Shown here: positions 9,477-16,133 of the stretch, one piece after another
Numbering within the stretch: position 1 is the stretch's first letter
Layout of the letters: each line of letters starts with the position of its first letter
Virus record (IMG/VR): IMGVR_UViG_3300042510_000354
Span: 48,418 to 68,417 of that record
Direction: 5' to 3' (one strand)
DNA length: 20,000 bases
Source of the DNA: an uncultured virus (IMG/VR IMGVR_UViG_3300042510_000354)
Lineage: Duplodnaviria > Heunggongvirae > Uroviricota > Caudoviricetes
Translations under genes and position numbers: made by a program
Notes under the pieces: generated by a model
Database searches by the model: none
The model's input: only the letters and a program-made list of their open reading frames with translations
Told to the model about the DNA's origin: nothing

Positions 9477-9795
9477 AGACTTTGTAGTTAATAGTACTGT
9501 TCATGTCTCTCAGTTTAGGTTAGTTATTGATGATATTAACAAGACAACTACAAAACTTGTTGATGATTTATGGGATACTGGTATTACATTCATTGTAAGT
9601 GGTTCTACAGATTTAGTTGCGTTAAATGAACTAAACAACAAAATTATTAATCGGTCAGGATCTATTGGTCGTTGGAAAGTAACAACTCCAGCAGATATTT
9701 ATCTTGAACCAGCAGAGCTATTTATTTCAACTAAGGAATTATCAGATGAGCAAACTATTCGGTTGCCAGTTCAAAAGCTATTCAAGTGTATTTAA
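9454..9795 (+). CDS. Hypothetical protein (start uncertain: 9448/9454/9460)
   Basis: Open frame 9337-9795; a later start minimises the overlap with the preceding ORF. Confidence 0.6.
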   Translation: MTLTDQIKDFVVNSTVHVSQFRLVIDDINKTTTKLVDDLWDTGITFIVSGSTDLVALNELNNKIINRSGSIGRWKVTTPADIYLEPAELFISTKELSDEQTIRLPVQKLFKCI

Positions 9796-10429
9796 TTCAA
9801 AGGCTAAGCCTAAAGCACCTCAAGAGCCAGAATCTCCAAATCCACCTCAACCTGTAATTCCTGAAGATAATGAAGGTAATTACTATTGGTTTGGAAAGAA
9901 CATTATGCGTAATGGCATTATGTATCTTATGGGTGAAGTAGAAGACGATTCTGTACAGCCTATTATTATGGCTATTATGGAATATAATCTTATGGCTAAA
10001 GAAGATCAACCAACTAAATTAGTACTATTTATTAACAGCCCAGGTGGTTTTGTTTCATCAGCATATCATTTGATTGATACAATTAAACAATCTACCATTC
10101 CAGTAGCTACTATTGGTACTGGTGAAATTGCCTCAGCTGGAGTAATGCTATTAATGGCTGGATCTAAAGGTAATCGATTTATTACTGAAAACTGTTCTGT
10201 AATGTCTCATCAATTCTCTCGTGGAGTAGTTGGTAAAGAACATGAAATAGCTGCTGCTTCAAAAGACTTTCAATTAGATTCCGCAAGAATGCTAACCCAT
10301 TATCGTAAATGTACAGGTAAATCTGTAGCATATATTCGTAAACACTTACTACAACAATCAGATTGTTTCTTCTCTCCAGATGAAGCAGTTATACATGGTA
10401 TTGTAGATGAAGTGATTAAGAATCCATAA
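9746..10429 (+). CDS. clpP: ClpP-like serine protease (peptidase S14)
   Basis: LFINSPGG, catalytic Ser in GEIASAG, His in MSHQ, Asp in SDCFFSPDEA..GIVD; AAGGA RBS 8 nt before ATG 9746. Confidence 0.88.
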   Translation: MSKLFGCQFKSYSSVFNSKAKPKAPQEPESPNPPQPVIPEDNEGNYYWFGKNIMRNGIMYLMGEVEDDSVQPIIMAIMEYNLMAKEDQPTKLVLFINSPGGFVSSAYHLIDTIKQSTIPVATIGTGEIASAGVMLLMAGSKGNRFITENCSVMSHQFSRGVVGKEHEIAAASKDFQLDSARMLTHYRKCTGKSVAYIRKHLLQQSDCFFSPDEAVIHGIVDEVIKNP

Positions 10430-10433
10430 CCCA

Positions 10434-10467
10434 AGCCCTGACTAGAAATAGTTGGGGCTATTTTATT
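10434..10467 (+). terminator. Rho-independent terminator ending the replication module
   Basis: 11-bp stem AGCCCTGACTA/TAGTTGGGGCT (2 G-U pairs), GAAA tetraloop, followed by ATTTTATT; lies just after the clpP stop. Confidence 0.8.
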
Positions 10468-11159: not shown

Positions 11160-11403
11160 ATTGTTAGAGGAAATTCATGCAATTAACAACACTAGTAATT
11201 TTAATTATTCCTCTAGTTACGGGGCATACTTAGCATTACGTATGATTAAATCTAGTAATGTTATTCAGTCAAGATATTCTTTTGAGTGGGATAATATTAG
11301 TCTTCTTCAGGATACACTCGAGCTATTAGAGGATGGCCCACCTACAAGAGTCAGACAAGAAACTCTTGTTAAAATATTGAGTAGGGAAGATGCCACGGCC
11401 TAA
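11131..11403 (+). CDS. Hypothetical protein
   Basis: AAGGA RBS before ATG 11131 (preferred over track start 11026). Confidence 0.65.
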   Translation: MKTLTTLANELLEEIHAINNTSNFNYSSSYGAYLALRMIKSSNVIQSRYSFEWDNISLLQDTLELLEDGPPTRVRQETLVKILSREDATA

Positions 11404-11743
11404 GAAAATAACGACTATTAAAACTATTTGTTCAAGCGAATTAATAGAATTAGTAAGAAGGCGAAGATCACAAATGTTAATACATTCGTGTATCTATTAT
11501 GAACTAAATGAAAGCATAATCTCTGATCATCAGTGGCAAGCATGGGCTGATGAATTACAAAAACTACAAGAAGAACACCCAAGTTGTTTAAGAATTGATT
11601 TTTACGATTGGGAATTTAGAGATTGGGATGGAGCCACTGGAGCACATCTGCCACACAGAAACCCTTGGGTTTTCCAGAAAGCAAATTATATTTTAAATCT
11701 TTCAAGAGAAATAAATGATCACAATTCAAGAGTTAGAAGTTAA
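11390..11743 (+). CDS. Stand-alone NAD+-dependent DNA ligase domain Ia-like protein (Nlig-Ia-like)
   Basis: HSCIYYELNESIISDHQWQAWADELQKLQEEHP resembles LigA Ia H...YY....P.ISDxEYDxLxxELxxLExxHP; no adenylation KxDG domain. Confidence 0.7.
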   Translation: MPRPKKITTIKTICSSELIELVRRRRSQMLIHSCIYYELNESIISDHQWQAWADELQKLQEEHPSCLRIDFYDWEFRDWDGATGAHLPHRNPWVFQKANYILNLSREINDHNSRVRS

Positions 11744-13064
11744 ATTTCCTGTAGTATTAGAGATTCTCCGTATGTCAAGAGATTGGCATGCAAGAGAACA
11801 GAGGGCTTATGAGTTTCACCCTGTGATTAAAGATATCATGAAGAAACATATTCCTGAAAATTATCGTTTGTTAGCACTAGAGTATCCTCATATGTCTGTT
11901 AAGGATGCTAGTAATGTTGCATTTACTCGTGATGAGCGTTCAGGCGACAGTGATCGTCAGACTGTTACTACCTTCGGACGTTATATCCGTAGAATGTTTC
12001 CACAGTTAAAGGATCATGAAATCCGTGACTTTGCTACTAAATGTCGTAATGATACATTTGAGATCTGGGAAGACTCAGATGGTATTATTTTAAGTGTTCA
12101 GAAAGGTCCACGTTCTTGCATGACTTGGGATTCTGCCTATACACCTGGACATGATGAGTATTGTCCTGACTACTTACATCCTTATCGGGTTTATGCACCT
12201 GAACTAGGTTGGAAAGCTGCAGTTAGACTTGACCCTGATACAAAGTCAATCAATGGTCGTGCCTTAGTATGGCATTCTGATGATGAGAAAGAAAAATGTT
12301 TTGTTCGCAGCTATAAGAGAGGAAATGATTATAGCTATGCTGATGAGGCATTAGAGTATTGGTTAAAAGAGAGTGGTTACAAGCACTATGATGGATGGCC
12401 TGATGGCGCTCCATTAAAGTATTTTAGTAACAATAGTGAATTCTTAGCTCCGTATATTGACGGAGAACATCAGCGAGTAAGTAAAAGAAGTGGAATGACT
12501 TATAAAGGGGTTCCACATAGCTTAGTTATTTGTGAAGATGGTGACTTTGAATGTACTAATACTGATGGCGCTCCTTGCAATAGTGCTGATTGTCATTGTA
12601 ATTGTTGCGATGAATACTATAACTCAGATGATATGAGGTCTGTATATGAAGATGATGATGTTTGCTATGATTGTGCAGATAACTATTATGTAATGGCTTA
12701 TGTAGATAGTACTCTCTATAAAGAGCGTATTCATGAAGATAATGTGATTACATTTGAAGGCGAATACTACCATATGGAGTATTTAGATCATCATGATTTA
12801 GTAGAAGTACAAGATGGTGAGTATGCTAAAGAAGAGGATACATATGAGACTAATAGTGACGATATCCGTGTATTAAAATCTGATGTAGGTCCAGAAAAAG
12901 ACTGGGTGCTCTTGCATGATGGTATTGCTTATCCAAGACATGAAGTGTATTGCTGTTACGCATCACTTACTTGGTATTTAATAGATGATGCAGAGCCTGT
13001 AGAATTTAATGGTAAGACTTATCACCCTGAACATTTGCCAGTAACATTGGAAGAAACAGAATGA
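11715..13064 (+). CDS. Hypothetical 449-aa protein: globular N-terminal region (SCM, GRALVW, FVRSY, PYID motifs), CxxC pairs and acidic beta-hairpin-like repeats
   Basis: Long ORF; CNCC..CYDC and repeated xxGxYY/xH units in the C-terminal third; ATGA overlap with the peptidase. Confidence 0.85.
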   Translation: MITIQELEVKFPVVLEILRMSRDWHAREQRAYEFHPVIKDIMKKHIPENYRLLALEYPHMSVKDASNVAFTRDERSGDSDRQTVTTFGRYIRRMFPQLKDHEIRDFATKCRNDTFEIWEDSDGIILSVQKGPRSCMTWDSAYTPGHDEYCPDYLHPYRVYAPELGWKAAVRLDPDTKSINGRALVWHSDDEKEKCFVRSYKRGNDYSYADEALEYWLKESGYKHYDGWPDGAPLKYFSNNSEFLAPYIDGEHQRVSKRSGMTYKGVPHSLVICEDGDFECTNTDGAPCNSADCHCNCCDEYYNSDDMRSVYEDDDVCYDCADNYYVMAYVDSTLYKERIHEDNVITFEGEYYHMEYLDHHDLVEVQDGEYAKEEDTYETNSDDIRVLKSDVGPEKDWVLLHDGIAYPRHEVYCCYASLTWYLIDDAEPVEFNGKTYHPEHLPVTLEETE

Positions 13065-14206
13065 AGACTCAATTAATCAAAGATCTAGAATATGCGTTAT
13101 CCTTCAAGAGACCACATGGTGGAACTGGAGTAACTGCGCTATGTAACTATATTGTAGAACGTGTTGGTGAGGGAGATCTATCCGTAGATTTCTGTGGTAA
13201 TATTCATGTTGACATGAGAGATGATTCATCTAACGAAACTATGTTTACTGCTCACGTAGACACTGTACATCGTGAAGATGGCTTTAATACTTTTAAATAT
13301 GAGGGCCAATACTTATTAGCTGATGGTGGAAAACCTCTTGGCGCTGATGACGGTGCAGGTGTTGCTATTTTACTTCATATGATTGACCATAGAGTACCTG
13401 GTTACTATGTGTTCTTTCAAGGCGAAGAAAAAGGCGGTATCGGTTCTAGCTGGCTAGCGTTAAATGATCAAGAATTAGTTGAACAGTTTACTAGAGCAAT
13501 TACATTCGATCGTAAAGGAACTCACAGTGTTATTACTCATCAAATGTGTGGTCGTACTTGTTCTGATGATTTTGCTTACGCATTATCTGATCAGCTTAAC
13601 GATTTATGCGGTGATTTTATGTATGTTCCTGATGATACTGGTGTTTATACTGATACTGCTGAATTCTCTGGAATAATCCCTGAATGTACTAATATTAGTG
13701 TTGGTTATTATTCTGAACATACACCTAATGAAAAATTAGATATAATTCACTTTGAAGACTTAGCTAAAGCTGTATTAGAAATGCAATGGGATAAATTACC
13801 AGTAGTTCGTGATCCAAGTTTACCAGATCCAGATGAGCTTGCGCCTACTTATTATACCTCATTCCCTACCTATAATAAAGATGCTTATGGCTATAGTAAC
13901 TATGGAACTCCTTCTGCTGATTATGGTTTAGATAACGATGAAGATCCTGTAGGTCCAACAACATATACGGAAGAAGCTACTGCGTTGATTGATTGTTTAG
14001 CAGATGCTAAGTTTGGTTTAAAGACAGAGTTATTAAACTTAGTAGCTAACTTTATTCATCCTGAAAATCCAGATACTGCAATTAAATTCTTAAATAGAAA
14101 TGCATTAACAGAGGAAGTTATTCTTGATGCAGAAGATATGATTCGTGTAGGTTATGAAGAGCATCAAGTAATTGAGTATTTGTTTGATATATTATACAAG
14201 GAGTAA
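13061..14206 (+). CDS. M28/M20-clan Zn metallopeptidase with C-terminal extension
   Basis: FTAHVDTV, LGADDGAG, GEEKGGIGS, FDRKG, GYYSEHT metal-ligand motifs. Confidence 0.85.
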   Translation: MKTQLIKDLEYALSFKRPHGGTGVTALCNYIVERVGEGDLSVDFCGNIHVDMRDDSSNETMFTAHVDTVHREDGFNTFKYEGQYLLADGGKPLGADDGAGVAILLHMIDHRVPGYYVFFQGEEKGGIGSSWLALNDQELVEQFTRAITFDRKGTHSVITHQMCGRTCSDDFAYALSDQLNDLCGDFMYVPDDTGVYTDTAEFSGIIPECTNISVGYYSEHTPNEKLDIIHFEDLAKAVLEMQWDKLPVVRDPSLPDPDELAPTYYTSFPTYNKDAYGYSNYGTPSADYGLDNDEDPVGPTTYTEEATALIDCLADAKFGLKTELLNLVANFIHPENPDTAIKFLNRNALTEEVILDAEDMIRVGYEEHQVIEYLFDILYKE

Positions 14207-15546: not shown

Positions 15547-15828
15547 ATGAGTACAACTAAAGTTTATTTCAGAGATCACGATTATACTTTTAAATATGGA
15601 AGTTTATTTCTTGATTGTAAAATTGAGTATGAGCCAGGTGAGAGGGGTTCTCGAGAATACGGTACAGGTCTACAACTTGACCCAGATTATGATGCGGTAG
15701 CAAATGTAATCTCTGTTAGTCTTAAAGGGGTAGATGTTACAGATATTATTAAGGAAGATATTCTTGATGAAATCAGTGATGCATTTTTAAACCAAAAAGA
15801 TATTGACTGGGATTACGATTACGAGTAA
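15547..15828 (+). CDS. Acidic hypothetical protein
   Basis: GAGGT RBS; 93-aa ORF; TAATG overlap downstream. Confidence 0.75.
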   Translation: MSTTKVYFRDHDYTFKYGSLFLDCKIEYEPGERGSREYGTGLQLDPDYDAVANVISVSLKGVDVTDIIKEDILDEISDAFLNQKDIDWDYDYE

Positions 15829-16133
15829 TGACTAAGCATGCCCTGACTGCTATCTTATATGATAAGAAGGGACGTGTACTTTCTGTAGGTCAAAATAATT
15901 ATGTGAAGAGCCACCCTCTTATGGCAAAACATGCTGTGGGGGTTGGTGAACCATATAAAATATATTTACACGCAGAGGTACATGCTATTCTTAGATGTAA
16001 GGATTTAAACAAAGCTCACAGAATCTTTGTAGCTAGATACGGCAGACAGGGTGATTCATTAAATGCCAAACCTTGTCCGATCTGTATGTCAGCTATTAAA
16101 GAGGCTGGTATTAAAATAATTGAACACACATGA
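15828..16133 (+). CDS. Small cytidine/dCMP deaminase-superfamily protein
   Basis: LSVGQN, LHAEVHAI and AKPCPIC Zn-binding motifs. Confidence 0.85.
   Translation: MTKHALTAILYDKKGRVLSVGQNNYVKSHPLMAKHAVGVGEPYKIYLHAEVHAILRCKDLNKAHRIFVARYGRQGDSLNAKPCPICMSAIKEAGIKIIEHT

Follow-up and report, generated by a model that had tools for sequence, protein, structure and literature searches.

Described systems closest to the gene pair

Aminoacyl-tRNA-dependent transferases of the GNAT fold (FemX/FemA, MprF and Sbb17, and also L/F-transferase and ATE1) are built from GNAT domains in tandem and are not known to use a catalytic cysteine. In canonical GNATs, strand 4 is followed by a loop that binds the acetyl-CoA pyrophosphate (R/QxxGxG/A). 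Operons of a peptide ligase and a peptidase, as in the amidoligase/ATP-grasp/GATase clusters of phages, were reportedly described in 2009. Among phage GNATs, Rac of the phiKMV-like phages is an acetyltransferase with a recognisable acetyl-CoA pocket that is reported to act via host proteases (PMC7552054), and the DNA-modifying Mom family passes on a non-acetyl acyl group, its jumbo-phage domains being fused to nucleases with no peptidase partner mentioned in the excerpts of PMC7824862.

The stretch of DNA analysed here (the window) makes up the final 20 kb of a virus record of 68,417 bases and contains two adjoining genes, A and B (Table 1). Like Rac, protein A combines a phage GNAT fold, here a predicted one, with a possible takeover role and a link to proteolysis; by description, it is set apart from Rac by the missing loop, an invariant cysteine, a variable tail and a peptidase partner of its own. 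The Mom family was likewise compared by description, and A did not match the Mom Pfam models. Unlike the Fem/MprF type, A has one half-GNAT core (only residues 111-227 of the 449-residue model match GNATs), and its scores against FemX/FemA, MprF and Sbb17 are no higher than those against ordinary acetyltransferases. Amidoligase clusters would resemble the pair in placing a peptide-bond maker beside a peptidase, but the core of A is unrelated to the amidoligase, ATP-grasp and GATase folds; in agreement with the first-pass annotation, which had recognised no amidoligase or GATase motif, genes of these three kinds are absent from the 27 window proteins and from 129 neighbours at 20 bacterial loci. 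Among the fold matches of A, a viral 'amidoligase enzyme' model turns up with a weak score (E 8e-3), probably through a common Zn-ribbon tail. The pair is undescribed in the open-access literature searched, and it goes unmentioned in the main texts of PMC7824862, PMC5512222 and PMC9723777, as far as these were available; their supplements may bear on how new it is. The parts of A and B belong to known folds, and there is a real chance that together they form a new kind of system.

Table 1. Features of the A-B locus, in window positions
Feature	Position	Strand	Description
Gene A	11715-13064	+	449 aa; uncharacterised Cys-GNAT-like protein
A residues 1-110	11715-12044	+	N-terminal alpha/beta domain; matches no known family
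A residues 111-290	12045-12584	+	catalytic-looking core
Cys135 codon	12117-12119	+	proposed nucleophile (sequence and conservation)
A residues 291-449	12585-13064	+	two CxxC pairs, acidic beta-hairpin repeats; exchangeable tail
ATGA stop/start overlap of A and B	13061-13064	+	read from sequence
Gene B	13061-14206	+	381 aa; di-zinc peptidase
B residues 1-255	13061-13825	+	catalytic domain; di-zinc clan-MH peptidase: H65, D96, E122, E123, D150, H220
B residues 256-381	13826-14206	+	Tyr/Asp/Pro-rich linker and small domain, kept only among near relatives

Setting and linkage of the two genes

The window runs from genes for DNA polymerase, primase-helicase, ribonucleotide reductase and ClpP into a block of small ORFs. 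As first described, A and B are the largest genes there, every other ORF 3' of 10477 being of 209 aa or less, and their ATGA overlap suggests translational coupling. Purifying selection acts on both genes: 16 comparisons of regions with four close relatives gave dN/dS values of 0-0.17. Scans for promoters (38 found, 49 expected) and terminators (5 found, 4.2 expected) stayed at chance level, and the RNA libraries yielded only short fragments of the region, as contigs, in all four runs, which lends no support to transcription.

A stand-alone NAD-ligase N-terminal domain (Nlig-Ia, E 5.7e-30; 11390-11743) overlaps the start of A by 29 nt, and a ClpP-family protease gene (9704-10429) lies just 5' of a terminator-like hairpin (10434-10459); neither is a common neighbour of the pair across lineages in the clustering of 104 loci, which also found no third gene common to all lineages. 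The phage further encodes two separate dCMP/cytidine deaminase-family proteins (2366-2779 and 15828-16133). Elsewhere in the same genome are a T7-type RNA polymerase (L288:6431-8599, E 1e-80), a second, weak polymerase-like fragment at the start of the record (L287:69-506, E 0.0096), a 2,442-aa tape-measure-sized ORF within the structural block, and a row of two 2OG-Fe(II) oxygenases, a heme oxygenase and a ferredoxin-dependent bilin reductase (L288:2203-4628).

Conserved linkage of A and B had been named beforehand as a point on which the proposal of a joint system could fail; the linkage is kept across distant phage groups, in both gene orders. In IMG/VR, B lies downstream of A in 79 of the best 80 loci out of 265 candidates found with A as query (the 80th ends inside A); within these 79, gaps of ~220 and ~515 nt separate the genes in two and B is split in one. 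With B as query, A is directly upstream in 70 of the best 80 out of 449 candidates and one gene away in 3, and the contig start cuts off the remaining 7. The two sets overlap and come mostly from related phages; the independence of the linkage is carried by the distant groups. Among 12 cultured phages picked from the match lists, A precedes B in eight (Pasto, SU503, Ep4, PhiM1, OY1, C171, BDU-MI-1 and fHe-Kpn01) and follows it in two (Cellulophaga phi38:1 and Thermus TSP4), while P23-45 has both genes 30 kb apart and in Bacillus PJN02 a B was found but no A. Phage-collection tallies of A and B, counted by organism and not matched by record, are nearly equal (Klebsiella 231/230, Vibrio 42/42, Escherichia 10/10, Shigella 4/4).

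Bacterial genomes were scanned with B as query: A is found just upstream of B in 53 of the 80 best GTDB loci, about 22 of them sphingomonad and hence not independent; the 27 without it include nine with less than 600 nt upstream, some megaphage-like contigs and some cellular-looking loci. For 84 non-redundant A sequences, B lies within 400 nt in 75, in the same locus in 7 and nowhere in 2. The two are also fused in one 728-aa protein, a single sequence that could be an error. Other arrangements were seen as well: two tandem A-B pairs in a Mesorhizobium genome (L258:1570-8319), a B apparently in pieces, through decay or sequencing error, in Pseudomonas phage C171 (L180:4980-5959) and in an IMG/VR contig (L031), and a Cas3 that runs in frame into a B-type peptidase (P0264; 1,260 aa, 5 member sequences), which is either a read-through or a real fusion.

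Phages of Vibrio, Pectobacterium, rhizobia, Bacteroidetes and Thermus carry the pair, as do freshwater phages and megaphages. In Autographiviridae it sits in the early region, ahead of the primase, and PMC4411677 and PMC6115819 list both genes as conserved, under the names 'hypothetical' and 'putative peptidase'. Rhizobial copies lie inside T7-like prophages, with terminase on one side and integrase on the other; in sphingomonads the pair adjoins ParB and DUF7146-Toprim genes, including on the conjugative plasmid pMC4. Plasmid pVL1_2 carries an A-A-B-A-B array and, 3 kb after it, a catalytic-domain-only gene of the GluRS/GlnRS family (L267:9739-22754). A third gene after B (fHe-Kpn01 gp14, KP34p12, PhiM1_11; L274:5871-6338) is conserved in Drulisvirus and Phimunavirus, and an rIIA-like gene is directly 3' of B in two Bradyrhizobium phage-type loci (L179:4228-6339 and L239:6970-9093). 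In Sphingopyxis, genes for a prokaryotic E2, JAB and ThiF lie 4 kb downstream of the pair (L189:10670-12779). In a decayed region rich in IS elements (L268:7782-9968), a tail-less A without B adjoins a PEP mutase gene; it matches seven Bradyrhizobium megaplasmid records with equal score; as a decayed remnant, this neighbourhood was set aside as a functional clue.

The A family and its peptidase partner

Three PHROGs of unknown function (6980, 13313 and 23053) are related to A, whose own PHROG match is weak. A word search returned 638 relatives of A, and a profile search 3,911 clusters (50% identity) at E 0.001, 3,037 at 1e-10 and 781 at 1e-30; the profile contains the Cys-rich tail, so weak matches may be matches to the tail only. 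A and its distant homologues have no match in Pfam, NCBIfam or PADLOC, the profile matched no PDB sequence at E 10, and a Foldseek search of the A model against the PDB gave nothing at E 0.001. In the predicted structure, residues 111-227 align at middling Z to the GNAT fold over its N-terminal half, with the strand-helix-helix-three strands-helix core arrangement. Over the C-terminal GNAT half (strand 5, helix 4, strand 6; V-shaped cleft), most alignments stop at core position 120 and a few reach 143-172; after the strand at 194-201, neither A nor the alignments of its family show an R/QxxGxG/A pattern. The model thereby supports a GNAT-type fold, with the reserve that a middling Z imposes. 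L/F-transferase, ATE1 and MYST-type enzymes, absent from the fold matches listed, are still conceivable relatives.

The first guess at the fold, GNAT or PcfJ-like, found support in its first half only. PcfJ-like proteins (PF14284) were a weak language-model lead (0.80-0.82) and also have a cysteine after a helix, but their motif is HCV/NCV where A has SCM; the PF14284 HMM matched neither A, nor its homologues, nor any part of the genome, and hhalign gave a probability of 0.25% against a PcfJ profile built from only 5 sequences. All atlas leads for A (EcoRI methylase at 0.90, BSD2_CRD and PcfJ) are unconfirmed.

The motifs first noticed in A are all in place (SCMT 134-137, HPYRVY 155-160, GRALVW 181-186, FVRSY 196-200, PYIDG 246-250), as are the CxxC pairs at 295/298 and 317/320 and the acidity of the tail (42 D+E versus 9 K+R within 291-449). 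Near relatives keep W24, H35, P58, A69-Y70-T71, G88-K/R-Y90 and R104 of the N-terminal domain, which distant members retain only loosely. In the core, S134-C135-M136, Y160, R182, R198, Y200, P246-Y247, D249 and G285 are invariant or nearly so, and all of these except R198 are common to members from cultured phages and a megaphage at 15-27% identity. Across 84 de-duplicated cores from all loci, Y160 and R182 occur in 84, D249 and G285 in 83, Y200 in 80, R198 in 72 and H155 in 71. A cysteine count in this set would be circular, since its members were picked by SC[MLI]; in an unbiased set of 237 profile matches, the motif is present in 234 and reads GCM in one, and two end before it. The cysteine, whose variability had been named in advance as grounds for rejecting the proposal, is accordingly conserved in 235 of the 235 matches covering the region. 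These invariant polar residues disfavour the earlier suggestion of A as a substrate-binding scaffold.

Megaphage LR756504 has 14 copies of A and 8 of B. SCM, RAxxW, DRxY and PxxD are retained in all 14 A copies, and their cores are alike in 91 of 91 pairs (28-45% identity); their tails (21-438 aa), one of which is a long CxxCxGxG repeat, are similar in none of the 91. The HxD, GxD and final His motifs are present in all eight B copies, the EE motif being unmatched by the search pattern in two.

For B, the full di-zinc ligand set first reported is borne out, together with a catalytic Glu (H65, D67, D96, E122, E123, D150 and H220 are invariant in 21 of 21 homologues at 25-67% identity, and the ligands align with those of 3gb0), as are the extra C-terminal domain (residues 256-381, with no Pfam or other family match) and, judged by hydropathy alone, the lack of a signal peptide (best 19-residue window 1.0). 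Its M28/M20-type label had to be loosened. B scores 26.2 bits against Pfam M28 (PF04389; cut-off 21.3), covering only profile positions 1-102 of 193, and matches phrog_4191 'peptidase' at E 8.5e-72; its profile finds PepT-like 3gb0 best (E 2.9e-21), then M42 and other clan-MH enzymes including 2cf4 (E 2.2e-13). Since the nearest solved relatives are PepT-like (M20B) and M42 enzymes, clan MH is the safer name. B shares its two-metal ligand set with the PepT-like, M42 and M28 peptidases of this clan, but scores only 32.6 bits against TIGR01883 (PepT-like, M20B), below the curated 274.25, lacks the ~110-residue PepT lid/dimerisation insert (profile positions 157-190 span 3gb0 chain positions 170-314) and has conserved segments of its own, TGVYTDTAEF and ECTNISVGY. 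By its sequence, B is therefore a clan-MH exopeptidase or amidohydrolase and not PepT itself, and without a lid its site should be open to large substrates. Prediction of an A-B complex scored 0.00 in two runs, which weighs neither for nor against contact.

Possible roles of the pair

Taken together, the evidence points to an undescribed reversible tagging tool directed against the host and carried by many unrelated bacterial viruses. Our preferred reading, which could well be right but is held with less than even confidence, is that the pair makes up a self-contained module for reversible modification, carried by phages and other mobile DNA and consisting of a Cys135-thioester transferase and an amide-removing peptidase. 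The analysis shows the linkage, the conserved residues, the predicted fold, the exchange of tails and the ligands of B; each chemical step, like the donor, the target and which way the coupling runs, is proposed. A, as a GNAT-derived transferase, would bind an acyl or aminoacyl group as a thioester at Cys135 and hand it to an amine of a macromolecule of the host, in all likelihood a protein, picked by the exchangeable C-terminal tail, the proposed target-binding part. The donor is probably not a conventionally bound acetyl-CoA; an anionic activated donor, held by Arg182, Arg198 and Tyr200, seems likelier, either an acyl-adenylate or an aminoacyl-tRNA, for which the neighbourhoods give two isolated hints. 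B, as an open-site di-zinc exopeptidase, would remove or trim the amide-linked group and so limit the mark in time or spare phage proteins, and the module would act early, in host takeover or counter-defence.

The combination of a constant core with swapped tails is our main reason for favouring macromolecular targets, and it counts against a rather unlikely alternative in which the pair works one way and its substrate is a small molecule, a tRNA or a base in DNA, with B trimming or unblocking and A acylating, or the reverse, much as adenine in DNA is acylated by Mom-type GNATs. The GNAT fold does include Mom and small-molecule acyltransferases (PMC7824862), tight coupling and the A-B fusion would fit a two-step route, the solved relatives of B cleave di- and tripeptides, and one truncated A adjoins a PEP mutase gene. 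Yet 14 paralogues whose 14 tails are unrelated and reach ~440 aa fit many macromolecular targets better than a single metabolite, the loci share no nucleotide- or metabolite-handling neighbour, and the PEP mutase case stands in a decayed stretch where B is missing. Unlikely, too, is a reading of A as a cysteine hydrolase (deacylase, amidase or isopeptidase), in which both proteins together clear away a conjugate made by the host, for example a protein tag used in defence, and leave no group in its place. A Cys135-His155-Asp249 triad is conceivable in the near family, two hydrolases in one operon would need no writer/eraser timing, and the Sphingopyxis pair lies near E2, JAB and ThiF genes; but that neighbourhood was met at only one of 20 bacterial loci scanned, the fold matches are transferases, and the loss of His155 from the aligned Drulisvirus, Maculvirus, P23-45 and megaphage copies, which retain the two Arg and two Tyr, counts against a universal Cys-His-Asp triad.

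A non-catalytic A, acting as an acidic DNA mimic or as a virion-carried scaffold that recruits B, is very improbable. Its tail is acidic, and one GenBank record, behind whose naming no paper was found, calls a homologue a 'putative DNA mimic protein'; but the invariant residues lie in the core, which megaphage copies retain while losing that tail. The products of gp12 (A), gp13 (B) and gp14 are marked in GenBank MN380459 as detected by LC-MS/MS in particles, as confirmed by PMC7291057. The particle list in that paper comprises 29 of 56 proteins, both terminase subunits and the endolysin among them, and its authors regard some as carried over; it is permissive, and we read the detection as evidence that A and B are produced, not that they have a structural role. 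The same paper reports no HHpred match for A and has neither A nor B in its toxicity screen.

Within the preferred reading of a reversible module, a bolder version, which we consider quite improbable as it stands, makes A a Cys-thioester aminoacyl-tRNA-protein transferase, E3-ligase-like, and the founder of a large family of such enzymes, with B as dedicated eraser or N-terminal trimmer. The constant core and swappable targeting tail would then place amino-acid tags, which might be N-degrons or marks on lysine, on selected proteins of host defence or transcription, and phage-encoded reversible protein tagging would proceed by a chemistry unreported for the GNAT fold.

The analysis gathers three or more anonymous PHROGs in a single family, to which it assigns a fold, a candidate nucleophile and a partner enzyme. 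Among the KP34-like phages of Klebsiella, whose genus is isolated for use in phage therapy, A and B are conserved early genes. A is annotated only as hypothetical. If the proposed module is right, reversible acyl or aminoacyl tagging would join the short list of phage protein modifications, next to kinase activity, ADP-ribosylation and acetylation.
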